A stretch of 64,000 nucleotides of DNA from Promethearchaeota archaeon (lineage in GTDB: Archaea; Asgardarchaeota; Lokiarchaeia; Sigyniarchaeales; SOKP01), in assembly GCA_019058445.1 (NCBI GenBank), contig JAHPZA010000006.1, positions 672,001-736,000 of the forward strand, given 5' to 3'. Positions 2,928-17,949 of this stretch are shown one piece after another. The translations under genes were made by a program, and so were the position numbers. The notes under the pieces were generated by a model. It searched no databases. It was not told where the DNA came from and worked only from the letters and a program-made list of their open reading frames with translations. Position 1 is the first letter of the stretch, and each line of letters starts with the position of its first letter.

Positions 2928-3250
2928 CCCTTTTTTTGTTTATTTTAAATCTTAATAATTGAATCTTTATTTTTTAGCTTTTTAAAAATATCTTTAATAA
3001 TTGTGAGGTTAGAATTTTTTTAAGTGCTTTGGGCTCTTTAATGAGTCAGTCTTTCAGAGGATACTAATTATTCTGCAGCAAAATATTAAGAAAATTATGG
3101 AATATTAATAACTTTGAATTGAAAAAATTAAAAAAAAATATGGAAGTTATTCTATTTTTCTGATCATTTACAGAAATGTCAAAAGATCACATTAGAGTTA
3201 AATATGCATTAATCATAATTAATTCTGATAATTAACGAAAATTAGTTATC

Positions 3251-3363
3251 AAAGAGGAAGAGAAAGAGGAAATCAATCCTAATCAAAAATAATAATGAGA
3301 ATTAAACATTAAAATGTTTAATAAAGGGCGAAATCCAATGTTCGATAGGATTGAAATTTCCTC
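3251..3363 (-). ncRNA. Putative structured ncRNA, copy A of a 3-copy motif
   Basis: Outer stem 3346-3363/3266-3281, core ATTGGATTTCGCCCT (3325-3339, minus strand), inner hairpin ATTAAACAT/ATGTTTAAT, TATA-like box at 3388-3395, pyrimidine tail. Confidence 0.6.
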
Positions 3364-3605
3364 CAATGCTTATTATATATTTTCATGTATAAAAATGTTT
3401 ACTTTAGTTACACATAGTTAAATTATCAAATATAAGGGAAATCATAATATAGTAAAAAATTAAGATTAAAAATTTATCAAACTCAGACTAAACAAATTAT
3501 TTAGAAAGTTAAAAGCTTAAAAATTAAGATCAATAGAAATTGATTAATCAAATGACTATCTAATTTAAAAATTAAAAAAAAATAAATAAAAAAAAGTAGA
3601 AGTGA

Positions 3606-3986
3606 TTATTCAATCGCTACATCCACAGAGGTCATTTCAACTTCTTTATTTGGTACATGGATCCTCAGTAATCCATTCTTGTACGAACTAGTCGCTTTCT
3701 CATGTTCTACGGGGCAGCATAAGGTATAATACCCTACGTATCTAATTCTATCTGTATCCCCGGCAACAAAGAAGGTATCTTCAGACATTTTAAGCTTAAT
3801 TGTGTCCTTTTCTACTCCGGGAAGATATACTTCTATTTCATAGCCAGTATCCTCTTCATTGATCCATGAGCACATCTGGGGAGTAAGTACAGTTCTTTGT
3901 GGCTCCTCTTCTACTTTTTTTATTTCTGAAGGTGTTTCTTCTGCTTTTTCAATTTCTACCTCATCTTTTGTTTCAATATCACTCAT
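3606..3986 (-). CDS. Small heat shock protein (Hsp20/alpha-crystallin)
   Basis: EVYLPGVEKDTIKL and ATSSYKNGLLRIHVP motifs. Confidence 0.9.
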   Translation of the reverse strand: MSDIETKDEVEIEKAEETPSEIKKVEEEPQRTVLTPQMCSWINEEDTGYEIEVYLPGVEKDTIKLKMSEDTFFVAGDTDRIRYVGYYTLCCPVEHEKATSSYKNGLLRIHVPNKEVEMTSVDVAIE

Positions 3987-4307
3987 TTTTGATCAACTTG
4001 GATTTTTTATTAAGTATATAACTCTAAATTTGTGAAAAAAATATAGAAATTTCTATTTATGCGTGATAAAACATTAAATAGAAGATTAAATTCACTTTCC
4101 AATTTTAATTGCATCCTACAATTGATTTACAAAATATAAAACTTCTCGCAGAAATGAATCTTTGAGACCCAAGGATTTATAATTTTTAATTCTCCAAAAT
4201 AATATTTTTTAAGAAAAACAAGAAAATCAGCGGGCTTTCATTTTTTATATATATCTCCTCTTTAATTAGTATTACATATTCAATAGATAATTACTGGTGA
4301 GACATGA

Positions 4308-4742
4308 TTGGAATGCTCAGAAATCTCAAAGATTTGGAATAACTACAATATAAGTTATGATCCGCTCTTAGATGATGTTTTGTCCAATCACTCAAAATTT
4401 AAGATCAATAACAAAGAAAAAAATTATGCAAAATGTGGAGATTACTTAAAACTTGGTGAAAAAAACATTTGGCTTCAATTTCATTATGAAAATTTCACAC
4501 GCTGTAGGCTTGTTGCCTATATTGAGGGAGAAAAATTTAAGATTTGGAGCATTGTAAGTACTCCAAAAAAGATTGGGCTTGGTAGCAGAACTTTGGAGTT
4601 CCTAAACCAGATGTTTCTTGATTCAGGATGCAAATTGAAGCTTTTTATCGTGGATGTATGGCCCGTGGCAAAAGGTTTTTGGGATAAGATGAAACAAAGA
4701 AGCCTTATTACGGATTATGAAGTTAGTGAATGCCATATCTAA
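4308..4742 (+). CDS. Hypothetical protein, possibly GNAT-like fold
   Basis: SIVSTPKKIGLGSRTL and VAKGFWDKM resemble GNAT motifs A and B. Confidence 0.5.
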   Translation: MECSEISKIWNNYNISYDPLLDDVLSNHSKFKINNKEKNYAKCGDYLKLGEKNIWLQFHYENFTRCRLVAYIEGEKFKIWSIVSTPKKIGLGSRTLEFLNQMFLDSGCKLKLFIVDVWPVAKGFWDKMKQRSLITDYEVSECHI

Positions 4743-4765
4743 TTTTTTCTCTAAAAGACGAATAA

Positions 4766-5890
4766 TCAAGGACGTAAGGAATCTAAATATACATCCAAAT
4801 CTTTTATCTCATTGAATATAGGTAAATTTAGCTCTTTTTGGCTATATAATTGCATTATCCTCTTCTCTAAATTGTTAGTTGCTTCTTGAAGTCCAGAAAA
4901 ATCTCTATTAGAAATAAATGTTGTTAGATCAGATAGATTTAAATCATGATAGTTTTCTTCTACTTCATGAAAAAGGTTAAAATCGTAGGTACTAATGAGA
5001 TCTCCTTTATTTTGAGCAATGATTTCTGAGATCCAAATTTGTAATTCGGTGGCTGCATAACTAGCTAATAGGATATCCCTTTTATCACAAGCAGCATATA
5101 TCTTGTTAAAATATTCTTTCATATGTACTAGGACGTTTTTATTCAATATCTTTCGATTAGTTTTAATACTTTGTTGCTGACTTCTAATAAGCTTTCGAAT
5201 CTCTAACATAAGAGTTCTTCCAGTTGATAGTAATTTATCAAAATCATTAGAACTAACAAGGATTCTAATCATATTATCCAAATTTTTAGGTATGATGGGA
5301 AGTTGAAATACTTTTTGTAGATTTGAACCCTAATTTTTGGAATAATACACATTATTCAGCCATGATAAAGTAGCACAGATATTATTGATTAATCCCCATA
5401 AAGCCCACCGTGCAGTTAAAATATCATTCTTCACTTTGGCTAATTTTACTCGTTCAATGGAATAATCCATATTAAATTGACTCATTGCCCGCATAAAATT
5501 TCCTTCAGTATCTTCTTTTATCTTCTGAATTGATTTTTTTAATGAATTGAATCTTTCTAGATCTTGTTCATTTCTATAATAAAGAACTTTACAGTTCACA
5601 AAAATGTGGGCTGCAACACACCAGATTTTTAATTTATCTTTTTTAGCTGAAGCAATCTCTTCAGCTTCTTCCCAATCCATGGACCAAATGTCCACTGCCT
5701 TATCCTGAAAAATAAAGCTCCATTTCATTTGATTTTCTAAGCTAGTGATAGCATACATATCTAAATCAGAATAATCAGATTGTTTGCCTGTAGCTATAGA
5801 ACCATAAATAGCAATAATGGATATCTTTATACCATATTGCTCCACTACTCGTTTTGCGATTAATTCAGCTAATTCGTTTAAACTAGACAC
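4766..5890 (-). pseudogene. Kanamycin-nucleotidyltransferase-like protein interrupted by one in-frame TAG
   Basis: YGS.ATG....SDLDM pol-beta NTase motif; the two track ORFs share a frame: YYSKN*GSNLQKVFQLPIIPKNLDNMIR, TAG at 5330-5332. Confidence 0.8.
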
Positions 5891-6045
5891 ACTACTCCCT
5901 TTTCAAATTTTTTGAGATAATAATTATCTAAAATCAGTTTTAATTTATTTATATCTCTAATTATTGTCCAATCAACAAGAATCCCTTTTTAATTATTTTC
6001 TATAAACTGACTTAAAGAAATTTTAGATTTTATTTGTTTATCTTT

Positions 6046-6876
6046 TCATGAGAAAATATATTTATCAAGCCAATATTTCTCATTAAACATAAATATGGCA
6101 TCGGCGGAGCTTACAAACTTTAATGATCTTAAAACATCAAATAGTAAGTAAAGTCCAAAATTTTCTCGGAATTTTCTTATAAGGATTCCTAATGTGAGTC
6201 CGTTGGGAGATAGCTTCCTTAATTCGTCGGGATTTCTACTTTGATAGGAATTAAAGGCATTTATGAAGTTAATTACCTCAGATGTACATAATTCCTTTAA
6301 GTTTTTATCTTTAAACCGAGCCAATTTAAATCCTTTATGTCTAAACAGTATCAATTCCAAAGAATGAACTTCATTATAAACCACACTTCTCTTATTCTTT
6401 GATTTTTTAAAATATTTCGCGCCAAAGCTACTAATCTTGTTCTCAAAATAAGGTGTAAAGTGTAAGGCATATAAAGGGGCCAATAATCCCTCTTTTGCAG
6501 CGTTCATATAATATACGCGACCTTGATAGATTTCATGTAAATAATTTTCAGCTGAAGAAGTATATACCCAATCTTCATTTTTTGGTTTTCTGTCAAATCC
6601 CTTCCCCTCAAGTACCCACAATACGAAATCTCCTTCCTGATTATATTCTTTTGTACGCTGAATTATTTCTGAGCTGCTGATCTTTGAATGTTGAATTTCA
6701 ATGACAATTTTTTTACCATTTTTTAACTCAACATAAATATCAGCTATTCTATTTCCAATTTTTATTTCTTGCTGAATGTTATTTATCTCATTATATACTG
6801 AAAGATTGTCATAAAAGAATTTCTTAAGTACAAGGTGATTTATTGTTTCTGAATGTTTTACATCCTCTAAAGTCAT
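6046..6876 (-). CDS. CoiA-like PD-(D/E)xK nuclease family protein
   Basis: HSETINHL; RIADIYV...IVIEIQHSKIS...RTKEY...VLWV. Confidence 0.8.
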   Translation of the reverse strand: MTLEDVKHSETINHLVLKKFFYDNLSVYNEINNIQQEIKIGNRIADIYVELKNGKKIVIEIQHSKISSSEIIQRTKEYNQEGDFVLWVLEGKGFDRKPKNEDWVYTSSAENYLHEIYQGRVYYMNAAKEGLLAPLYALHFTPYFENKISSFGAKYFKKSKNKRSVVYNEVHSLELILFRHKGFKLARFKDKNLKELCTSEVINFINAFNSYQSRNPDELRKLSPNGLTLGILIRKFRENFGLYLLFDVLRSLKFVSSADAIFMFNEKYWLDKYIFS

Positions 6877-7024
6877 ATCTATTAATTCATTCTAATAACA
6901 ATTTTTTAAACTCACTGGTTTTATTAATGAGAATAAAAAAAGAAAAAATATTTACAGCTCTGCTTGAGTGGTGTATCTTCAGCTAGGGAGAACCTTCACC
7001 GCTTCTGTCGAAAATACCTAGAAT

Positions 7025-7132
7025 TTAGGGCTTTAATCCAGGTATAGATACACCTGCCTGCGACATTGATAAACCTAGTGAAAGAACAATGAGTAAAGCA
7101 AGAGCAGAAATCACGCGCTTATTTGCGTTCAC
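7025..7132 (-). CDS. 35-aa peptide with signal-peptide/TM character (not in ORF track)
   Basis: GTG start, GAGGT SD (7142-7146), TTTAAATA box (7204-7211); MNANKRVISALALLIVLSLGLSMSQAGVSIPGLKP. Confidence 0.65.
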   Translation of the reverse strand: MNANKRVISALALLIVLSLGLSMSQAGVSIPGLKP

Positions 7133-7252
7133 TTGATCTCTACCTCTGTTCTTAACGTATGGTTTTTTGTAGTAAAGTTCGTCTATTTTAATTAAAATAA
7201 AATTATTTAAACTCCTCCAAATAAAATCTGAACAGCAATTTAGCAGTTATGT

Positions 7253-7519
7253 TTATGCTATTAATGATAGACCTTGAACGTGGGGTGATTGATGATATTT
7301 CTTGTAATACGCTTCTTGAAATAAGTGATCCTTAATTTCATTTCTTAATGATTGATATCCCCTTCCTTTTAACACGGCTCTTATCTTTTTAGTAAGAAGA
7401 ATTTTGTTATTCATTGAAATTTCGTAAATAAATATCACATAAAAATTGGTTTTCTCCACTTTGTAAATATCTGCTACCATATGATCGAATACAGCTCTTA
7501 GAGTCTCCTTATATTCCAT
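7253..7519 (-). CDS. Hypothetical protein (probable start MEYKETL)
   Basis: ORF track; internal ATG preceded by GGAG. Confidence 0.5.
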   Translation of the reverse strand: MEYKETLRAVFDHMVADIYKVEKTNFYVIFIYEISMNNKILLTKKIRAVLKGRGYQSLRNEIKDHLFQEAYYKKYHQSPHVQGLSLIA

Positions 7520-7777
7520 TTTCTGTCTCCAAAACCAATTAATATTGAACTTTATAAAGAAAAAATTTATTGTTAGGAAAAAATTCCCGTTTTTTCTAAA
7601 TAGTCCCATACTATAACTATAAATAGTATAAGAGTAAAGATTCCAAAACCTACAATTAATGTTTTTTCAACTAATACTGCCACAAAAAGAATTTTGTATC
7701 TAAAAATTTAAAGTTCTAAAGTTTATTCAAGTAATGCTCTTAACTAAGTTCTACATAAAACCCAAAATAAGCTACTT

Positions 7778-8098
7778 TTAATTTTTATATAGTTTATTTT
7801 CGTTAATCTTATTATATTCTTTAAAATTTTCTATGTATTCTTCAACACAGTTAGAGCAAATGGTTACAATGTTGTTAGGATCAAAATTATATTCCGGAAA
7901 TTTTTGAGGAGCTTTTTTATGGATAAAGCACATGAATCCGCTTTGATGGCTATGAAAATGCAAAAATATTTGCAAATCTCTTTCATCTCCAAATGGTCTA
8001 TGCCTGTTAAACTCTTTTACTAATTTCCTTCTGTATTTTATGATATCTTTTACGTTATAGTTGTCAATTTCCTTCTCGGTCATCGTGCGTTTTACCAT
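7778..8098 (-). CDS. Hypothetical protein with degenerate HNH-like motif
   Basis: FIHKKAPQKFPEYNFDPNNIVTICSNC resembles the HNH H..P....PE...D..NL..LC..CH pattern. Confidence 0.5.
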   Translation of the reverse strand: MVKRTMTEKEIDNYNVKDIIKYRRKLVKEFNRHRPFGDERDLQIFLHFHSHQSGFMCFIHKKAPQKFPEYNFDPNNIVTICSNCVEEYIENFKEYNKINENKLYKN

Positions 8099-8243
8099 AT
8101 AGTTTTATTTATTTCAAAATAAAAATCTTCTTTTTACATTTTATAAATAGAAAAGTGATTTACCTCAAAAATTTAAGGAAATGCTTAAGAACTTTTGATT
8201 TCATAATAAGAAAATTTATTTACCCATCACAATAAAGAACAAT

Positions 8244-8495
8244 ATGGATAAAGATAGATATAAAGGCAAACCTGCGATTGAAAAATTTAAGAATGACATG
8301 GGATTTGAAGATTGCTCTATAACTAAAAACCATATAGAAGAGAGTGGTTTTGTTCATAAAAATATTATTCATAAAATTGAAATGGAGTGTTCTAACTTCT
8401 ATGAGGACAAATTTAAATGTTCAACCTCAATAAAATCTGATAATGATGAAATTATCAAGTCTAATTGTGATAAACAAGATTTTCAAGAAGACTAA
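8244..8495 (+). CDS. Small hypothetical protein (4 Cys)
   Basis: ORF track. Confidence 0.5.
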   Translation: MDKDRYKGKPAIEKFKNDMGFEDCSITKNHIEESGFVHKNIIHKIEMECSNFYEDKFKCSTSIKSDNDEIIKSNCDKQDFQED

Positions 8496-8567
8496 ATTTA
8501 AGATTAAAATAAAAAGAGTGTAATTAAAAAAAAATATTTTGTAGATTACCTTAATATTTTATTTTTC

Positions 8568-9470
8568 TTAATAAACTTCTATAGTTTCCCGTGTATAAGG
8601 TTTGTTTTGTTTGAATGCCTCAAGAATTCCATTCATTCTATTTTTTACCATTCTCTTCCATATAAAGCTTGTATCAGTAAATATGTAGAAGGCCTCATCC
8701 TTAATTGCTTCAAATACAATATCTCCAGCTTTATCTGGTGATAATCCTTCTTCAAGGGTTCTGTAAAAAGTCTCAAAATATGACTTATATTTTGGATGAG
8801 TCTCTAACCATTCTTTGTTTGCTGTTTCTTGGTCAATATCGCGATCACGTAATTCTGCCGGACGATTTCGAAAAGAATTTGTTGCAATGTTGGTATTTAC
8901 AAACCCGGGACAAAGAACTGACACTTTTATTTTTGTATTTTCATTTTTCAACTCACCCAATAATGTTTCTGAAAGCGCTACTACACCGAATTTAGTAATA
9001 TTATATATTCCGCTTAAAGGCTCCGCTAGATGACCTGCCATAGATGATGTGTTGACAATGTGACATTCATTATCTTGATTTAGCATAATTGGAACAAATA
9101 CTCTAATTCCATGAATGACTCCCCATAAATTTACTCCCATAACATATTTCCAATCGTTTAGAGTGGACTCCCAAAGAAGTCCTCCCCCGCCTACGCCCGC
9201 GTTATTACATAATATACGAACCTCCCCAAAAGTTTCAAGTGTTTTCTGAGCTAAAGCTTCAACATTTTCGGGTTTTGAAACATCTGTTAACACTGGCAGA
9301 ACAAGCCCTCCTAATTTCTTGAGTTCTTTTTCTGCCCTCTCTAAAGCATGTACGTCAATATCGGCTATAACTACTTTCATTTCCTCTTTAACAGCCCTTT
9401 TAGCTATTCCAAGTCCAATTCCATTTGCGCCGCCAGTGATAACAACTACCTTATCTTTAAAATCTTTCAA
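8568..9470 (-). CDS. Short-chain dehydrogenase/reductase
   Basis: TGGANGIG, NNAG, catalytic YNITK. Confidence 0.95.
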   Translation of the reverse strand: MKDFKDKVVVITGGANGIGLGIAKRAVKEEMKVVIADIDVHALERAEKELKKLGGLVLPVLTDVSKPENVEALAQKTLETFGEVRILCNNAGVGGGGLLWESTLNDWKYVMGVNLWGVIHGIRVFVPIMLNQDNECHIVNTSSMAGHLAEPLSGIYNITKFGVVALSETLLGELKNENTKIKVSVLCPGFVNTNIATNSFRNRPAELRDRDIDQETANKEWLETHPKYKSYFETFYRTLEEGLSPDKAGDIVFEAIKDEAFYIFTDTSFIWKRMVKNRMNGILEAFKQNKPYTRETIEVY

Positions 9471-9756
9471 GTTTTTCTAACCTCGATTTAAAAGTTTTTA
9501 AATTTTGGATTGAGCAATAACAAAAATTGATATTCTTATATTTAACTTTTTTGTCAAAAATAAATCTCATATTATAAATTAAAAAAAGTTATTGAATCAA
9601 AATTTAAGGATAAACGATAAAATTCTCAGTGAATCACTATTTATTCTTTGACTGTTTCTTATTAAAAAAAAAGATATTGAAAAAAATAATCTCAGTCTTT
9701 TGATTTAAATAATCTTGTGATTTTTTGTTTAAATAAAATTAGCTAAAAATACTATC

Positions 9757-10044
9757 ATGACTAAATTAATTTGTAAAATTCTCTATACTCCAGCACAGAC
9801 GAGTAATGCGATAGAAATTATTGGCGAAGTGGATAAGGAGCATCTGATTTCAGAACAATGTGAATTGATCGCCGTAGAACATAAAAGATATTTAAATAAT
9901 CAGCCAATTTCCCATAAATCTTTTATATCCAAAAGAGAAATTATTAAAATTTTGGTATTCAAAGAATCAATGCGGTTTGTACTAAATAAAGAAAATTTGT
10001 CATGGAATTCTCATGTCGAACCATTTGTAGGAGCAAAAACGTAA
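9757..10044 (+). CDS. Hypothetical protein
   Basis: ORF track. Confidence 0.55.
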   Translation: MTKLICKILYTPAQTSNAIEIIGEVDKEHLISEQCELIAVEHKRYLNNQPISHKSFISKREIIKILVFKESMRFVLNKENLSWNSHVEPFVGAKT

Positions 10045-10207
10045 AAATTTACGAGTTTTTTAACTTTTTGATCAAATTTGAAGCCATTAATCAAAAACAG
10101 ATTTCTTTTTTCTTACTTCTTTCTGCAAAAAGATGTGAAAAGTAAGTAAGTTTAAGATTCATATTACATTTTTGGATTCAATTAAGAGACCAATTAGAGT
10201 TGATTAG

Positions 10208-10780
10208 ATGCTAAGAAATGTTGTTAATATTAGCGTGTACAGAAAAGTTATCCTAAAGGATGGAAGAGTAATAATACTCAAGAGAATGAACCAAGAAGAT
10301 TATAAAAAGGGCATGAATTATGAATATGTACATAACTGGTTAGCTCAAGTAAGTAAGTATTTATTATATGATTTCCAAGAGGAAGACATGGACTGGGATA
10401 AGCAGCAATTTTTAACATCATTAAATAATGCGGAAAACATCATTTTAGGGGGAATTTATAATGAAAAGATTATTGCACATGCTAAACTTAATGTGAATAT
10501 ATTATCTCCAAGGGAGAAGCATGTAGGATACTGGGCTGTTATGATTCATCCTAAGTTCCAGAATAATGGTTTAGGCACACATCTTCTCAATTGTATAGAA
10601 ATAATTGCCAAAAAGATTGGACTAAAACGTTTAGAAGCTGAATTTATAGAGGAAAACTCTTCAGCAAAAGCATTATATCTCCGAAAATTGGGTTATACTA
10701 TTGAAGGTCGCAAAAAAAGGGCATTTAAGCTTCCAAATGGCACCTATGTAGATAAGGCAGTTATTGGGAAAATATTATAA
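10208..10780 (+). CDS. GNAT N-acetyltransferase
   Basis: IHPKFQNNGLGT; ENSSAKALY.RKLGY. Confidence 0.9.
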   Translation: MLRNVVNISVYRKVILKDGRVIILKRMNQEDYKKGMNYEYVHNWLAQVSKYLLYDFQEEDMDWDKQQFLTSLNNAENIILGGIYNEKIIAHAKLNVNILSPREKHVGYWAVMIHPKFQNNGLGTHLLNCIEIIAKKIGLKRLEAEFIEENSSAKALYLRKLGYTIEGRKKRAFKLPNGTYVDKAVIGKIL

Positions 10781-10807
10781 CTTCTAATATCTACTTTAGA
10801 AATCAGG

Positions 10808-11494
10808 TTATCTACTAAGAACTCCAAAATATATAATAATTTCGTGTGAATTACTTGATAATTTGTATTGAGGTAATCCATTTCCCTTTTCAACATTAAG
10901 AAAAGTAAGTATTAATTCCTTTTTTTGAACGTCGAGCAGTTTTATTAATAAACCGACCATCAACATTAATACTTTTCGTGAACCATCTTTTAATACAGAT
11001 AATTTTGAAAGGAGTATCTCCTTAGATTCTTGAATATGTTGAAAGGGATCGCTTGCTCTGGAACATAGATATACAACTGTTTCCATATCTTTATGAAATA
11101 AAATAAAAGCTCCTAAATGGAGGTCATAAAAGATATCAAAGCTTGTTGAGAAATCTTTCCAGGACAGCGCAAACTTGATTAGATTATTGTTAATGATATC
11201 ATTAGCCATTTGAGTCTTATCACGACTTCTAATAATTATGCTATTAAGCAGATCATTTATGCTATATCTCCTTGCTTTTGAAAATTCAAGGATACGAAAA
11301 TTATAATTAAAATCTGTTATCAGCATATCTTTTACGAATGGGATGCTGTCTTCGGGATATTGTTCATAAAAAACTTTTGTCGTTTCATACCGAACGGTGT
11401 CATTGAGCTCATATGAGATCTTACTTTTCAAAGAATTAAAAGAATGCATAGAATTTTTTAGATCAAACTCTGATGTATTGTGAATTTTCATCAT
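10808..11494 (-). CDS. Hypothetical protein
   Basis: ORF track, 228 aa. Confidence 0.6.
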   Translation of the reverse strand: MMKIHNTSEFDLKNSMHSFNSLKSKISYELNDTVRYETTKVFYEQYPEDSIPFVKDMLITDFNYNFRILEFSKARRYSINDLLNSIIIRSRDKTQMANDIINNNLIKFALSWKDFSTSFDIFYDLHLGAFILFHKDMETVVYLCSRASDPFQHIQESKEILLSKLSVLKDGSRKVLMLMVGLLIKLLDVQKKELILTFLNVEKGNGLPQYKLSSNSHEIIIYFGVLSR

Positions 11495-11974
11495 ATATTA
11501 GCTTATACTCAACTATTAAAAAGAAAAAATAGGAACTTAATATTTGAAACTTACCAGGTAAAGGTTTAATTTTAGGCATACCAAAGGTAATATCTTAGAA
11601 GTTTTAAGTGTTAGACATAAATTAAGGCTGAATTTTTTATCCCTTAAAAAAATATGCATTATTTCTTCATAAATTCATACTTTTAAGTATTTAGAAAAAT
11701 GCTTTTTTCAGAAGCTGATCAATAAGATCATAAAAACAAAATTTATTTCAAAAAATTGAAAATTTCTTTTCATTAATTAGAACCAATTTCTTGAAGTGGT
11801 CATTCTGTTTGATTTTTAGATAATTTTGGGAAATAATTTTTGCCGTATTATCTTTATATTCAAGTTTCCTACAATATCGCATGTCAAAAAAAAAGGTTTA
11901 AAAAGACCACTCGGGATCTTAATTAATTAGTTTTTAAGAAAAAATGTAACTTTATTATAAGGTGATAAAAAAAG

Positions 11975-13267
11975 ATGGCTACTGATAAAAATTACTATAA
12001 TAAGACCCATACTCCCCAATCTGACCGATTAAGAGCACCATTGGAAGAGAATAAAACACAGATATTCACTGGGTTGATATGTGATTCTTGTAATTCTACA
12101 GATATTGTCGAGACAAGAGAAGGCTATGTATGTAGATATTGTGGAATGGTATTAGAGGGAAAAATAATTGTATTTAATAAACCTTATTTCTCAGATGTTC
12201 AGTATTATGCTAAGATGGGGGCAACACATATCGGAAATGCAAGAGAAAGACTTGCTCACGCCCACTCTAAAAAATTAACTCACTTACAAAAACTTCACTC
12301 AATTGAATCAAACGAAAAGGAGCTACTAACACATGCAAAAATCGAAATATCGAGAATTTTTACGTGTTTAAATCTGCCCCAAACATTAAAACAATTAGTA
12401 TATCATAAATTCATCAAAATCCGAACTGCGATTCGATCCGGGACCAAATATCGTGCTCCCCAAAAATTAGTACCTCTCACGATTTACTTTATTTGCAAAT
12501 TCGAAAAAATTTCTATTAATGAGGCCGATCTCTTAGAAGTTTCCAAAATTTCAAAAAAGGATTTTAATGCATTTAAGCTGCAAATCTTAAATTTTTTTCC
12601 CGAATACCTAGAAAGAGACAGGAAACAATACATCTTACAAAAAATCTTAGAACTTACGGAACATTTCAAGCTTGGTATGGAATTTTATTTTCAGTCCAAG
12701 AAAATCTTATTTCGGCTATGGGACAATATTAAAAATACGAAAGATGAAGTAATTGCTGGATTAGTAGCCTCGATATCAGTGCTATGTGCTTTTAAGAGTA
12801 AGGATGTGTCCGTTAGTGCCATATGCAATAAATTAGGAATCAAAATGAGCACAATTCAATCGCAAGTGAAAAGGCGTATTTTTGACCAATATCAAATTGC
12901 GGGTTTTACTACCCTCATAAAATCCTCTGAGCTACTTAAGAAAATAATTGGAAAAATGGGCTTGCTTACCACTCAACAAGAAAAAGTTGCCAATAAACAG
13001 AATAGTGATGAAATAGCTAAAAGAAAAACTGCTGAAATTGTTGAGATCAAACTTGGTGGAGCTCGAAAAACATGTAATCACCTTATGGATGTAGGACATT
13101 ATTTATTCGCCATTGCCAATGAAGAGAGGACTCCTGTCATGGTATCGTTAAAATCTTATGATATGAGTAATTTCTATTCTGACGCTAATATACGGAAATC
13201 TCTCCACGATAAAAAATCCGTTTTAGATAAGGAACAGCCTCTCTTTGAAGTGAAATTTATCAAATAA
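11975..13267 (+). CDS. Divergent TFB/TFIIB-like protein (Zn ribbon, cyclin repeats, C-terminal extension)
   Basis: CDSC...YVCRYCGMVLE ribbon; AKIEISRIFTCLNLP; VSAICNKLGIKMSTI HTH. Confidence 0.8.
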   Translation: MATDKNYYNKTHTPQSDRLRAPLEENKTQIFTGLICDSCNSTDIVETREGYVCRYCGMVLEGKIIVFNKPYFSDVQYYAKMGATHIGNARERLAHAHSKKLTHLQKLHSIESNEKELLTHAKIEISRIFTCLNLPQTLKQLVYHKFIKIRTAIRSGTKYRAPQKLVPLTIYFICKFEKISINEADLLEVSKISKKDFNAFKLQILNFFPEYLERDRKQYILQKILELTEHFKLGMEFYFQSKKILFRLWDNIKNTKDEVIAGLVASISVLCAFKSKDVSVSAICNKLGIKMSTIQSQVKRRIFDQYQIAGFTTLIKSSELLKKIIGKMGLLTTQQEKVANKQNSDEIAKRKTAEIVEIKLGGARKTCNHLMDVGHYLFAIANEERTPVMVSLKSYDMSNFYSDANIRKSLHDKKSVLDKEQPLFEVKFIK

Positions 13268-13291
13268 ATAAAATTCCTTGAACTAGAAAAA

Positions 13292-13738
13292 ATGATCGAC
13301 GATTATCTACTCCGACCGGCTACCATGGAAGATAGAGAGTTCATGAAGCATTTAGAAAAAGTAAATTTTGAAAAATTTCCTAAAGTCATGGAACTTTTCA
13401 GTGAGGAGCATCAAAAGAACCATTATGAAAATCATTTTAATCCGAAATATGTGTATATCATCGAATATGATAATCGACCTATTGGAGCGCAATCTGTAAT
13501 TGTACGCAGGAAAAATATGTTTATTTTATTTTTGTATCTTTTACCTGAATTTCAAAATAAAGGTATTGATGAAACTCTCATAAAAGTCGCCTTAAAACAA
13601 GCAAAAGAAGAAAAAAAACCTTTAATATCTTGTGTGTTTCAAGAAGATACTCAAGGAAAAAGTTTATTTGATGCCTTAGGATTTGAACCTTTTAACGAGG
13701 ATGATCTTCGATTGCGTGTGAAATGGAATCCTGCTTAA
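13292..13738 (+). CDS. GNAT N-acetyltransferase
   Basis: LRPATMED, YLLPEFQNKGI, LFDALGF. Confidence 0.85.
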   Translation: MIDDYLLRPATMEDREFMKHLEKVNFEKFPKVMELFSEEHQKNHYENHFNPKYVYIIEYDNRPIGAQSVIVRRKNMFILFLYLLPEFQNKGIDETLIKVALKQAKEEKKPLISCVFQEDTQGKSLFDALGFEPFNEDDLRLRVKWNPA

Positions 13739-13811
13739 AAAATTGATTAATTAGTAGTAAATTAAAGTTCTTTTATTGTGATGATTTTTTATAGAGGCGT
13801 GTTAAAATCGA

Positions 13812-14288
13812 TTAATAATTTTGGGGTTCATATTTAGTATCTTTCCTATATTTAGATTTTTTCATTTTGAATCGAGATAAGACAACAAGTATAAGACCCG
13901 TAAAACCAAATCCCCCATTCAAACTTAATAGAGTTATTATTTCTAACCTCATCATCGAAATTAAAGTGCCCTCTATACCCTGCATTATTAAAAAGACCAA
14001 TAATCCAATCATACCCATTCCTGCTCCAATCCAAATAATGAGCTTACCACTTTTATATCGATGCATCATAACTAATGTAGCTCCAGAGATAACTGAAATT
14101 CCCCCTCCTAAGGCTATATACGTGAAAATGTTCAGAATAACGGAAAGAACACCTTGAGTTTTTGGACCAACATACTCAGCAGCAACACCGAAGATAAGCA
14201 TAAAAATTGTTGGATTCCCCACCATAGAGCCAATAATCATTAAGGCTCCACCCAAAATACATAAAAATATCCATTTTTTATTCTCCAT
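13812..14288 (-). CDS. Four-TM membrane protein
   Basis: Gly-rich hydrophobic helices. Confidence 0.75.
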   Translation of the reverse strand: MENKKWIFLCILGGALMIIGSMVGNPTIFMLIFGVAAEYVGPKTQGVLSVILNIFTYIALGGGISVISGATLVMMHRYKSGKLIIWIGAGMGMIGLLVFLIMQGIEGTLISMMRLEIITLLSLNGGFGFTGLILVVLSRFKMKKSKYRKDTKYEPQNY

Positions 14289-14495
14289 TTTATTACACCT
14301 AAATATAATATTATTATTTCCAATAATTCATCTAATTTAGCTTTTATTTATTTGATTTTATTTTTCTTACAAACAAATAGCAAGGGAAGCGATGAAAAGA
14401 CTGCTATATTGAAATGGCAACCTCCCATAGCTTCTTAAAATCCTATGAATCCTATGAATCTGCAATATTTAAATTGAAAAATAAGCTAAAATCTC

Positions 14496-15545
14496 TTACT
14501 TCTTTAAGTCATTTAGAGAAAAACTTATATAATCATCCTTTTTTCGATCTGGGGGATATAATCTTAAATTTATCGTATTTGAAATCTCAAATAACGCAGT
14601 ACAAATCGTATCATATATATATCCCGATTCTGGATCCTTAACAGAATTAAAAGCAATATATTTATCCGAAAGAACCTCTAAAGCATTGTTAGTAGTTTTT
14701 TTTAAGTTTGATAACAACTCAATTCCCCGTCTATATCGCGTTTTTGAGTTTCCATACTTAGGATAGGGAATATTCTTGAATTTTTCAGAGATATAGTGAT
14801 TAGTGTGGTAGTATTTATCCGAAATCTCTGTAAGGCAAGAATCGTCTGCGGTAGTTTCTAAATTTTCTACTTTATTTTCTCGCAATGATGCTAAATTATA
14901 ACTTACCCCTCCTGATCTCGGGGAATATAACTGGGCACTTTCAATTGCTTCCTCAATAGATTTCGCTTCTAATATACTTCTTCCAAAGAAGATTCTGCTA
15001 AAGCTAATTCTTTTAACTGGATTTGGTAAGCTATTTGCGGTAAATACAATTCCATGAGAGTTAAATCCGAACGAATTTCCGGAAATACACCCAGGATATG
15101 AATGCGCAAAAAAATTTGTTCCGTTGTCGAGTTCCACAGCGGTCAAATATGAATATTTGCCCATTATACTCTCGTAATCTTCATTATGGGTCAGAATGAT
15201 CTTATCTTCGTTTTTGAAGATTATTGTGGAACAACTCTCCAGAGTATCGTCCTTAAAAGGTACATGGCGGAAATTTGCTACTAAAATCTGGCGATAATCG
15301 AGACCAGATCCCTCCGATATTCCCTTAATTTCATCCATATAATGTGGAAAATGTTTGTGGGCCAGGGATTCCACACTATCTAATCTTTTTGGATGTTTTC
15401 TATCAAAATCTATGAGATTGTTCACTTCTTTGCATTCTTCAAAAGCTTGAGCAATGCGCTTTTGAAAATATTCTCCTATTTGTTTACCTATTTCGTGATT
15501 AGTCCCCTTTACACGAATGAATGGTAATAATGTGCTTTCAGTCAT
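14496..15545 (-). CDS. C45 family Ntn-hydrolase/acyltransferase
   Basis: GTNHEIG, autocleavage CST, HNED, GFNSHG, HTNHY. Confidence 0.9.
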   Translation of the reverse strand: MTESTLLPFIRVKGTNHEIGKQIGEYFQKRIAQAFEECKEVNNLIDFDRKHPKRLDSVESLAHKHFPHYMDEIKGISEGSGLDYRQILVANFRHVPFKDDTLESCSTIIFKNEDKIILTHNEDYESIMGKYSYLTAVELDNGTNFFAHSYPGCISGNSFGFNSHGIVFTANSLPNPVKRISFSRIFFGRSILEAKSIEEAIESAQLYSPRSGGVSYNLASLRENKVENLETTADDSCLTEISDKYYHTNHYISEKFKNIPYPKYGNSKTRYRRGIELLSNLKKTTNNALEVLSDKYIAFNSVKDPESGYIYDTICTALFEISNTINLRLYPPDRKKDDYISFSLNDLKK

Positions 15546-15681
15546 GTCGGTTTTTAAGTTTCATACACTAATGATTCCTTAAATCAAAGCGAATTTGATT
15601 TAAAATCATAAAATAGGGAAAATAAGATGGAATTGAATTTTAAATTTTCCAATTATCCATTAGAAAAAAGTGTATACTATT

Positions 15682-16068
15682 CTATTGGTGTGCAAAATAA
15701 AGCAAATCTAATACAATACTTTTAATTTGCATAATCCCTCTCGAGACCAATTTCCAACAGAGTTGATAGACAAAAGGCCAATGACCATTTTCCAGAGCTT
15801 TTCCTATTTTCACATATTTTTTCCATGGTACTTCAGAATAATTGCCAAAAATCATCGGATATTTCTCCAATAGCTTTTCCAATAGCGTAGTTAGGTGAAT
15901 GATATATTCCCAGGTTGGTTCTGCTGTGCCATTTTCATTTGAAATAAATTGCTTGCGGTCCAAACCATACATGTAAATTTCGAGTATCTCAATACATTCC
16001 AACACTTCCAAAAGAGGATAGAGCAAATCTTCAACCCAAGTATTTCCCTGTTCCTTTTTCGTATCCAT
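15682..16068 (-). CDS. DUF86/HepT-like HEPN protein lacking the RxxxxH motif
   Basis: LLEVLECIEILEIY..G.....F...; YSEVPWKK; CWKLV...I..IK match the DUF86 pattern. Confidence 0.6.
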   Translation of the reverse strand: MDTKKEQGNTWVEDLLYPLLEVLECIEILEIYMYGLDRKQFISNENGTAEPTWEYIIHLTTLLEKLLEKYPMIFGNYSEVPWKKYVKIGKALENGHWPFVYQLCWKLVSRGIMQIKSIVLDLLYFAHQ

Positions 16069-16484
16069 TGAAATGAACTGTATTGCCTGTATTTATATTT
16101 ATTATTATTCTACAACAGCATATTTAATCCTATATAATAGTCTTATAGAATAATATTACTTTTTTATGACCTCAAATTCTTCTCTTAGACTCAATTATTG
16201 GACCATATATTAACGGTCTTTCACACCTTGTCGTACAGTTTAATCTTTTCGATAGGTCTTATGATACAGATCGAATCCAGCATAACCCAATCAGCGATTT
16301 TTTTATTTATATTATATTTTTTTAGGTAGTACCAACGAAAAGAAAAGAGAAAATTTTTTTTGTATACTTCTTATATAAGCTTTATTAGTTATACCTAATA
16401 AATTAGCTTGTTTGTTGCGATAGAACGACAAACTATTTTTATTACTAGCTTTTTATATGACTAATACCAAATACCTATGTAAGG

Positions 16485-16608
16485 AAAGGAATCGTCGAAA
16501 TTCGAATAAACATTGGATTTCGCCCTCTATTAAGCTCTTGTACGAGTTTAATTCTCTCCTACTTATGTAATTTCATTCGAATTTGGATTCCTTTACTCCT
16601 TTTTCTTT
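16485..16608 (+). ncRNA. Putative structured ncRNA, copy B
   Basis: Outer stem 16485-16507/16575-16594, core ATTGGATTTCGCCCT at 16512-16526, inner hairpin ATTAAGCTC/GAGTTTAAT, TTTTTATA at 16450-16457, pyrimidine tail. Confidence 0.6.
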
Positions 16609-16862
16609 ATTATTACATTAATCTAGTTCGAGATCTGTTCAAACCAACACATAACTTCGAACTTTACAAATTAAATATTTTTTGAATTATTTTTTTTATA
16701 TTAATTGGTTATTAATGACAAAAATTCGAAATTAACAATTCTTTAAGGTTTTTTTCTGGAGGTTTCAGGGGTGATTTTCAAAACCAGGCGTGAGAAAAGT
16801 ATCATAAATTTGAAATTATAATTTAAATTTATATTTCATACAAAAAATATGAGAGGATAATA

Positions 16863-17708
16863 ATGGTTGAAGAAAACTATGAGCATATTAAAATAGAATA
16901 TCCTAAAACTATGGAAAGCGGCACCGTTGATGGGAATTATGCTATAATCTCGATGAATCGACCCGATAAATTGAATGCACTTCAAGTTCAAACTCTAAAA
17001 GAAATCGCCACAGCGTTAGATACTATGGATTTGGATCCCAATATAAGATGTGTATTATTGCGGGGTACGAAAGATTTTACAAAAAAGCCCGCGTTCTCAG
17101 CAGGGGCTGATCTTTCTGCAACTATGGGAAAAAATGTGAAACCGAACATTCCCATACACATGATGCAATCCCAGGAATATAGGCACAAATACTACGATCA
17201 AATTGAAAGATTTTTAAAGCCTTTAATTGCTGGTGTAGATGGATTTGCATTAGGTGGAGGTCTAGAGCTTACTTTGGTATGTGATGTGGTGATTGCCAGC
17301 AAGCGATCGAAATTTGGCTTCCCGGAAATAGCAAGAGGTATTTTTCCTTCCAATGGAGGAACGCAAAGAATGGTGCAGCATATCGGAGCTGCTAGAGTGT
17401 TTAACATGATGTATTTTGGAGAGCATTACAGCGCCGAACAAATGCATGAATGGGGCTTTGTCACCCATGTTGTAGATGATGATAAATTCGAGGATTATCT
17501 AAATGAAAAAATGAAATGGTTAGGAGAAGCTGCTACCGGAAGTTTGGCAATAATCAAAAAGTGCATAAGGTATGGAACCCAGGTGCCCTTAAATATAGGG
17601 TTGCAATTCGAGCAAATGGGATTTGGGGTCAATTCTGCCGCAAAAGATATTCGGGAGGGAATTTCAGCATTCCTTCAAAAAAGAGAGCCAAAATTCAAAG
17701 GCTTTTAA
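16863..17708 (+). CDS. Enoyl-CoA hydratase/isomerase
   Basis: NRPDKLNAL, FSAGADL, GFALGGGLEL, FGFPE. Confidence 0.95.
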   Translation: MVEENYEHIKIEYPKTMESGTVDGNYAIISMNRPDKLNALQVQTLKEIATALDTMDLDPNIRCVLLRGTKDFTKKPAFSAGADLSATMGKNVKPNIPIHMMQSQEYRHKYYDQIERFLKPLIAGVDGFALGGGLELTLVCDVVIASKRSKFGFPEIARGIFPSNGGTQRMVQHIGAARVFNMMYFGEHYSAEQMHEWGFVTHVVDDDKFEDYLNEKMKWLGEAATGSLAIIKKCIRYGTQVPLNIGLQFEQMGFGVNSAAKDIREGISAFLQKREPKFKGF

Positions 17709-17830
17709 CTCCTTTTATAAAATTATCTCTTTCTTTTTTTTATGTAGTTACAATATGAAATAAAGATGAAATATTGGACTCCACTACATTTTAAATCAGT
17801 AATGTCTGTAAATTAATTGTAAAAAAAAAT

Positions 17831-17949
17831 AGAATCTTTAAATTCGAGCTTAAATTGGATTTCGCCCTTAATTAAACCCCTGGAAGAGTTTAATTATCTT
17901 TTATTTTTTTCTATTTGCTTCGAATTTAGATTCTTTTTTCTCTTCTTTT
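17831..17949 (+). ncRNA. Putative structured ncRNA, copy C
   Basis: Outer stem 17831-17848/17919-17934, core at 17854-17868, inner hairpin TAATTAAAC/GTTTAATTA, pyrimidine tail. Confidence 0.6.

Follow-up and report, generated by a model that had tools for sequence, protein, structure and literature searches.

A candidate family of structured small RNA genes restricted to one lineage of Asgard archaea

Several described RNAs provide points of comparison for the element considered here. Among the small RNAs (sRNAs) that occur as sets of siblings, LhrC1-5, the csRNAs, RsaE/RoxS and the archaeal sRNA41 are encoded by paralogous genes of ~100 nt, each with its own promoter and U-rich terminator, and they expose conserved, unpaired pyrimidine-rich motifs between stems. 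In Y RNA and YrlA the two ends pair in a long stem, the internal loop is large and rich in pyrimidines and the 3' tail is rich in U, while 6S RNA is a rod with a central bubble and a terminal hairpin. The ENE elements of PAN, MALAT1 and transposons consist of a stem, a two-strand pyrimidine-rich internal loop and a stem-loop, and the archaeal H/ACA and C/D guide RNAs are small and multi-copy, the H/ACA hairpins having a large internal pocket. Each of these likenesses is found in an element of ~105–125 nt that is present in three copies (A, B and C) in a 64,000-nt stretch of the genome of a Promethearchaeota archaeon (GenBank assembly GCA_019058445.1, contig JAHPZA010000006.1, here C6, positions 672001–736000; this whole stretch is referred to below as the window). 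We conclude that the element very probably represents a real, previously undescribed and lineage-restricted family of structured sRNA genes, of which copies A, B and C are paralogous members.

Compensatory base changes provide evidence that the structure is real and under selection. Alignment of loosely trimmed copies with MAFFT and folding with RNAalifold led to a poor consensus, which was replaced by a structure drawn by hand on three close copies; a covariance model (CM) built from these was then rebuilt iteratively, giving an 8-sequence and later a 74-sequence model. In the eight good copies from the source genome, 95% of the cells in stem columns are paired and double changes occur in 16 of the 29 base pairs. 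The covariance check suggested in the original prediction, a reading of the window from its sequence alone, had a positive outcome: the model from the source genome recovered the family across genomes, and among 85 matches from 32 genomes (81 of them distinct) 91.8% of the cells are paired and all 29 pairs show compensation, in 456 cells. None of 500 shuffles reached the observed pairing, and sliding the partner strands by one to three columns left only 34–55% of cells paired. The alignments were fitted to the model and are hence biased toward the structure, but the margin is large and single-sequence folds agree; the 65 copies found beside one conserved enzyme gene (the master copies, described below) show the same stem pairing. 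Within the stems, G·U and U·G pairs together outnumber A·C and C·A combinations by 161 to 49, which indicates that the RNA is read from the strand originally proposed. The consensus has stop codons in all three frames (UAA in AUUUAAC, CUAUUAAAC and GUUUAAUU; UGA in CCCUGAU), and the element is thus not a peptide gene.

The outer stem of the RNA, 20–25 bp overall, begins with P1a, a helix of ~10 bp whose 5' strand is purine-rich (for example GGAAGGGAAU), followed by a small asymmetric loop and then P1b, also of ~10 bp. It encloses a large internal loop, the 5' strand of which consists of ACAUUGGAU, an optional inserted hairpin and AUUCGCCCUCU, and leads into P2, a 9-bp helix that is mostly AUUAAACUC/GAGUUUAAU and has a variable loop. 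On the 3' side of P2 the sequence UCUC(UCCCU), or UCUCUCCCU, is followed by a U-rich strand of 10–20 nt and by the 3' strands of P1b and P1a. Near-invariance across genera extends over the 5' loop strand, P2 itself and the beginning of the 3' loop strand (UCUCUCCCU GAUUUUA), a block of ~60 contiguous nt that includes a helix, whereas the outer stem varies in sequence but continues to pair. The conserved core had first been described as a 15-mer, ATTGGATTTCGCCCT; this 15-mer is indeed shared, but the core extends further, running on to ACAUUGGAUUUCGCCCUCU and including UCUC(UCCCU) on the 3' side of the hairpin. Among the master copies the P2 sequence is fixed in 62–64 of 65, while the paralogues show that P2 is able to covary; the few copies that lack P2 or the core are decayed in appearance. 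In some species a stable extra hairpin, often with a UUCG-type loop, is located exactly between ACAUUGGAU and AUUCGCCCUCU, converting the internal loop into a three-way junction. Taken together, the invariance of ~60 nt, the insertion of a hairpin at one fixed point and the freedom of the outer stem to change are more easily explained by a folded recognition module than by a linear seed. The extra-hairpin variant was seen at loci L116, L144, L143 and L156 and at about 25 other master loci, and in some of its members the 3' strand of the extra hairpin, GGGAGA, is perfectly complementary to the loop strand UCUCCC, such that an alternative pairing is possible.

The 8-sequence model matched 31 of the 36 genomes sampled from the same taxonomic family, in 12 of 13 genera; 24 genomes from six further families within the order and class gave no match. 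With the 74-sequence model, matches were obtained in 24 of 25 genomes of the family, including the genus missed by the smaller model, while 125 genomes spread over 26 other families of the phylum gave none. Each matching genome carries one to nine copies by the 8-sequence model, and tandem pairs ~300 nt apart are common. All of the matching genomes are metagenome-assembled genomes (MAGs), publicly named Promethearchaeota or Promethearchaeia archaeon, some with older Hermod-, Hod- or Thorarchaeota labels, and a 21-mer of the core is present in at least 120 sediment metagenome contigs. Every run listed for the window is a DNA metagenome of sediment or soil. As the original prediction had held, the RNA matches no recognised family: Rfam 15 gave no hits in the window at gathering thresholds, and a search of seven loci at E ≤ 5 returned only two sub-threshold chance matches, neither on the strand or at the place of the element. 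A search of the available literature found no description of the family.

The sequences that flank the RNA resemble those of an independent gene. Across the family, positions -32 to -24 relative to the start of P1 are occupied by a block that is nearly free of G and C, T followed by A, in a flank with a G+C content of ~20% elsewhere; both its location, about 28 nt upstream, and its composition are those expected for an archaeal TATA box. Directly after P1 there are 12–20 nt that are nearly free of purines, followed by A-rich sequence, and this tail, which had been noted in the window as a pyrimidine tail and is found family-wide, fits a U-tract terminator.

In the window itself, the CM places copy A at 3263–3364 on the minus strand (P2 hairpin at ~3301–3322), copy B at 16484–16598 on the plus strand (P2 at 16529–16552) and copy C at 17827–17941 on the plus strand (P2 at ~17870–17895), boundaries that differ from those first given by no more than about 12 nt. 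Under three successive models (R1, R2 and R3) the copies scored 49.9, 84.1 and 80.7 bits (A), 69.5, 104.8 and 99.0 bits (B) and 55.5, 95.1 and 84.7 bits (C). Folded singly, each forms an outer stem, a large internal loop and an apical hairpin, with z-scores of -4.6, -3.8 and -2.4, respectively. The 15-mer is exact in all three, at 3325–3339 on the minus strand in A, where it forms the 5' strand of the internal loop, and on the plus strand at 16512–16526 in B and 17854–17868 in C; with up to two mismatches allowed, 0.18 occurrences are expected by chance and none of 100 shuffles contained three or more. The outer stems differ in sequence yet pair, as had been claimed: GGAGGAAAU..CAAUCCUA with UAGGAUUG.AUUUCCUC in copy A, AAAGGAAUC/GAUUCCUUU (P1a) and AAAUUCGAAU/AUUCGAAUUU (P1b) in copy B, and AGAAUCU/AGAUUCU (P1a) and AAAUUCGAGC/GCUUCGAAUUU (P1b) in copy C. 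A TATA-like box had been proposed for every copy. It is present as TTTTTATA at 3388–3395 on the minus strand, 24–31 nt upstream of A (-31 to -24), and at 16450–16457 on the plus strand, 26–33 nt upstream of B (-33 to -26), but upstream of copy C only weaker AT-rich candidates are found. The purine-poor U/C tail of copy A, UUUCUCUUCCUCUUU at 3245–3262 on the minus strand, is a likely terminator. We regard the three as dispersed duplicates in which promoter, stem, core and terminator have been kept.

While the count of three holds for the window, the family is larger than first supposed, with nine to ten members in the source genome and hundreds in its relatives. This genome (4.6 Mb, 31% GC, 10 contigs, 92.6% complete) contains the 15-mer six times exactly and twice with one mismatch; the CM recovers nine copies, one of which has a diverged core (CCUACAUUUCGCCCC), and a later model adds a degenerate tenth. 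Three copies lie within 15 kb on C6, in the window, three within 20 kb on contig C9, and the rest are singletons. Degenerate members with weak stems are located at C9:198845–198954 (minus strand) and C9:573970–574079 (plus strand), with the cores ATTGGATTTCACCCT and ATTAAATTTCGCCCT, and these two may be decaying pseudogenes. In another genome, G019, near-identical RNA copies are found exactly at the ends of four contigs (C16, C42, C64 and C76; loci L064–L067). The RNA repeat thus breaks short-read assemblies, and copy numbers in fragmented MAGs are underestimated.

Clustering of the proteins encoded beside the 85 matches revealed one family of ~268 amino acids that adjoins 23 of them, always with the 3' end of its gene toward the RNA. 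This neighbour has a metallo-beta-lactamase (MBL) fold (Pfam Lactamase_B_2), and RNase Z models match it weakly, far below their cut-offs. The gene is single-copy in 33 of the 36 genomes of the family; in the protein, the HxHxDH motif and other metal ligands are intact. The structures nearest to an AlphaFold model of the protein (mean predicted confidence, pLDDT, 86.6) are the ElaC homologue 1zkp, YhfI, RNase Z 1y44, PhnP-type diesterases and Apyc1. A Ras-like small GTPase gene precedes the MBL gene, and the pair is conserved across the family (loci L102–L181), lying at ~215.8–217.1 kb of C9 in the source genome (L016:21–1345). In the MBL loci of 80 species, the RNA, in its best-conserved form, is found 65–350 nt past the MBL stop codon in 65, of which 55 are co-oriented with the MBL gene and 10 inverted. 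The master copy of the source genome occupies C9:217236–217359, and in this genus it lies between convergent genes.

In alignments of the spacer, the first ~100 nt past the MBL stop codon are at background, and conservation begins sharply at a palindrome. From there the order TGTTCT-N7-AGAACAT palindrome, AT-rich stretch, GTTTTTATAT, ~27 nt, and AAGGAAGGGAA at the start of P1 is kept across genera. The palindrome is probably a transcription-factor site; a genome-wide search of the source genome with its pattern gave no coherent regulon. The 10 inverted cassettes carry the same operator and TATA box. Since the promoter inverts along with the RNA, the unit that is conserved and has been moved consists of operator, TATA box, RNA and terminator. 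The palindrome was located about 60–110 nt upstream of the RNA (L016:~1390–1470; L102–L181), just before the TATA box of the master copy.

As to mechanism, we tentatively favour a trans-acting RNA in which the module formed by the internal loop and P2 docks a conserved protein, a reading to which we give slightly less than an even chance and for which the MBL enzyme is the sole named candidate. Transcription would begin ~28 nt downstream of the TATA box, on the purine-rich 5' side of P1a/P1b, and the transcript would end in the U/C tract after the 3' strand of the outer stem. The outer stem would hold open the large internal loop, capped by P2, and the pyrimidine-rich loop-P2 module would then provide a sequence-specific docking site, the partner being most likely a protein, with the RNA acting in trans as a component of a ribonucleoprotein (RNP) or as a regulator. 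We read the module as a docking site because P2 is invariant in nearly all master copies though it covaries in paralogues, and because the extra hairpin is inserted at a fixed point, as in multi-helix RNA cores. The candidate partner would be the single-copy ElaC/RNase Z-like phosphodiesterase of MBL fold, encoded downstream of the Ras-like GTPase gene and beside the putative ancestral master copy. The more specific idea, that the RNA is a dedicated partner of this enzyme (substrate mimic, guide or regulator), possibly together with the GTPase, seems to us rather unlikely. Under it, the outer stem and 3' trailer would present a helix resembling an acceptor stem and the loop-P2 module would give specificity, and if true, it would describe a lineage-specific Asgard RNP without a described counterpart.

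Several observations weigh against this reading. Sister families without the RNA also have MBL orthologues (36–51% identity), and a search beside the orthologues of other families for divergent homologues, which included a 6.0-Mb single-contig genome, found nothing above noise; in at least one genus the RNA is located away from the MBL gene. The MBL gene is therefore more widely distributed than the RNA, and their adjacency may be inherited synteny only. Some paralogues, among them copy C and a further copy, D, contain an internal U7 in the 3' loop strand that could end archaeal transcription early. No cultured member carries the family. What the analysis demonstrates is structure, strand, distribution, gene-like signals and synteny; that the RNA is transcribed, acts in trans, binds a protein or is connected with the MBL enzyme is our inference.

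A possible but doubtful alternative is that the copies are sibling base-pairing sRNAs, like LhrC, csRNA and RsaE in Firmicutes or sRNA41 in Methanosarcina, whose C/U-rich loop strands CGCCCUCU and UCUCUCCCU would pair with purine-rich sites in several mRNAs, for example at the ribosome-binding site. In favour of this are the presence of several copies, each with a promoter and terminator of its own, and the occurrence of pyrimidine-rich single strands in a 31% GC genome in which the Shine-Dalgarno sequence is GGAGGTGAT; J2/1, the 3' loop strand, contains CUCC, the anti-Shine-Dalgarno core. However, the exact complement of J2/1 is no more common before start codons than are controls of the same composition. 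Searches of the MBL and GTPase mRNAs with the loop strands gave best sites that pile up on Gly-rich codons at the 5' end of the MBL gene, and as shuffled queries do likewise, this pile-up is a composition effect. In the genome as a whole, the only complement to the core of at least 12 nt outside the family is the 13-nt UAGAGGGCGAAAU at C3:516219–516231 (L182 ~5220–5232, minus strand). This candidate target, a perfect complement, falls in the middle of a gene for a PKD-domain M28 peptidase, and the match was judged to be probably due to chance. Moreover, invariance over ~60 nt that include a helix far exceeds what a seed would require.

We consider it unlikely that the junction around P2 and the optional hairpin forms a ligand-binding or catalytic core, as in an orphan riboswitch-like sensor or a ribozyme. 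The pattern itself, with invariant junction strands flanked by covarying helices and a variable hairpin at a fixed point that gives a two- or three-way junction, is typical of aptamer and ribozyme cores. Against this, the RNA is not placed as a 5' leader, no riboswitch or ribozyme of Rfam matches even at E ≤ 5, the outer stem of 20–25 bp is unlike a switching P1, and the heterogeneous neighbouring genes provide no clue to a cleavage site or ligand.

A role in cis, either as a leader or riboswitch at the 5' end of the gene downstream or as a 3'-UTR (untranslated region) stabiliser or terminator of the upstream MBL gene, appears very unlikely. The window is misleading in this respect, as all three of its copies chance to point at a downstream gene: aldo/keto reductase (A, gap of 336 nt), enoyl-CoA hydratase (B, 265 nt) and a ferredoxin-nitroreductase fusion (C, ~78 nt); the co-orientation of 55 of the 65 master copies with the MBL gene could also be read in favour of cis action. 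Family-wide, however, the next gene downstream shares the orientation of the RNA in 36 cases and is convergent with it in 42, and the gap to a neighbour is short if its 3' end faces the RNA and long if its 5' end does. This random orientation of neighbours, together with the pattern of the gaps, argues for an independent gene and not a leader. Furthermore, the master copy of the source genus lies between convergent genes, the 10 inverted master cassettes have taken their own operator and TATA box along, and the families of downstream genes share no theme; likewise, the neighbours of A, B and C have no theme in common with the genes beside RNA copies elsewhere. The proposal of a non-coding RNA family with its own transcription signals is supported by covariation, TATA box, tail, the conserved operator and TATA box of the master copies, neighbour orientation and the lack of an Rfam match.

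Some features of the gene neighbourhoods in the window are conserved. An orthologue of copy A with the same downstream aldo/keto reductase is present in a congener (L053), and the place of copy C upstream of an Fe-S nitroreductase gene is kept at four congener loci (L021, L025, L047 and L075). The holding of paralogues at orthologous loci, the near-universal presence of the RNA in the family and the fall of conservation to background between the MBL stop codon and the promoter all speak for selection. A small heat-shock gene of the HSP20 family (3606–3986, minus strand) is directly upstream of copy A and in the same orientation. The enoyl-CoA hydratase gene (16863–17708) sits between copies B and C, while at L021 the hydratase gene is absent and only one RNA copy lies before the nitroreductase gene; the arrangement of B and C around this gene suggests a local duplication or insertion.

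The least probable reading, which we regard as highly improbable, is a miniature inverted-repeat transposable element (MITE) whose outer stem represents terminal inverted repeats, for although the copies are multiple and clustered, differ in number among close relatives (1–9), form tandem pairs and are near-identical enough to break contigs in one genome, the supposed repeats diverge within a single genome yet still pair through G·U-biased compensation, which implies selection on one RNA strand, and the check for target-site duplications at A, B and C that had been advised found none, the upstream promoter is duplicated with the element, paralogous copies are held at orthologous loci in congeners, no transposase is associated with the family and its core has no match in viral contigs. 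The cis-regulatory and mobile-element readings are largely excluded.

With every helix covarying and about 150 sequences examined, the orphan RNA class is well supported. Apart from the universal ones, very few non-coding RNAs are known in Asgard archaea, the prokaryotes most closely related to eukaryotes. This one is near-universal in one uncultured family, was not found outside it, and combines a promoter that looks regulated with a conserved neighbouring enzyme gene. The analysis yields a covariance model, a defined conserved module of 60 nt and one protein candidate for further work. Should the RNA form an RNP with the RNase Z-like enzyme, or contain a new aptamer or ribozyme core, it would constitute a new functional class of RNA in archaea; even as an ordinary regulatory sRNA it would serve as a useful lineage marker and fill a gap in annotation.

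Comparison with the described systems sets the family apart from each of them. The original prediction had suggested a rod-and-bubble shape like that of 6S or Y RNA, or a guide or protein-sponge role. A shape of rod, bubble and hairpin is present, but the specific analogies to 6S and Y RNA and the guide role gained no support. 6S RNA, whose central bubble mimics an open promoter and which binds RNA polymerase and templates pRNA, is ~180 nt long and is not known from archaea, whereas the RNA described here is 105–125 nt, has a bubble that is invariant in sequence and strongly asymmetric, is present in up to 10 copies and matches no 6S model in Rfam. In contrast to the archaeal guides, it has no C/D boxes, no ACA box 3' of the stem (where the tail is nearly purine-free) and no GA/AG signature of a K-turn, nor a K-loop, in the aligned loops; the sole hint of a guide RNA in Rfam is sR35, which scores 17.4 bits where the cut-off is 60 and lies on the opposite strand. 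Because the rRNA operon of the source genome is absent from the assembly, complementarity was assessed with the 23S rRNA of a congener, and shuffled queries equalled the best duplexes of the loop strands in 37 of 200 and 48 of 200 cases; with the neighbouring mRNAs and ribosome-binding sites, too, complementarity was no better than in controls. Of the operon itself, the assembly contains only the last bases of the 16S gene, at C6:1276217, where the contig ends.

The ENE elements offer a parallel in the loop, where P2 is flanked by CGCCCUCU and UCUCUCCCU, both conserved among the 65 master copies. Here 5' CCCUCU mirrors 3' UCUCCC, an arrangement that also resembles anti-Shine-Dalgarno-type sRNA motifs, and the two could in principle clamp a purine strand AGAGGG. 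The loop is, however, of mixed C and U and not U5, and no purine-rich tail or tract was found as a partner, the 3' tail being pyrimidine-only and the complementary purine motif not specially placed in the genome. A triplex between the 3' tail and the purine strand of P1a was considered and rejected, as the copies' own tails scored 5.76 and swapped tails 5.81, with no covariation. The bacterial sibling sRNAs belong to another domain of life and have no sequence relation to this family, which differs from such siblings in its ~60-nt invariant region with a helix and in the negative results of the ribosome-binding-site and mRNA target tests. Y RNA and YrlA differ in that the family described here matches no Y model or other family in Rfam and has no tRNA-like domain; TROVE/Ro (PF05731) was not found in the source genome by a search that was positive in Deinococcus and Bacteroides, while a blank result for the vault domain (PF01505) is uninformative, as the control for it matched no genome either. 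The neighbouring protein here is ElaC/RNase Z-like. In bacteria the Y RNA gene adjoins that of the protein with which the RNA associates, a layout that recalls the placing of the master copy of this family beside the MBL gene.

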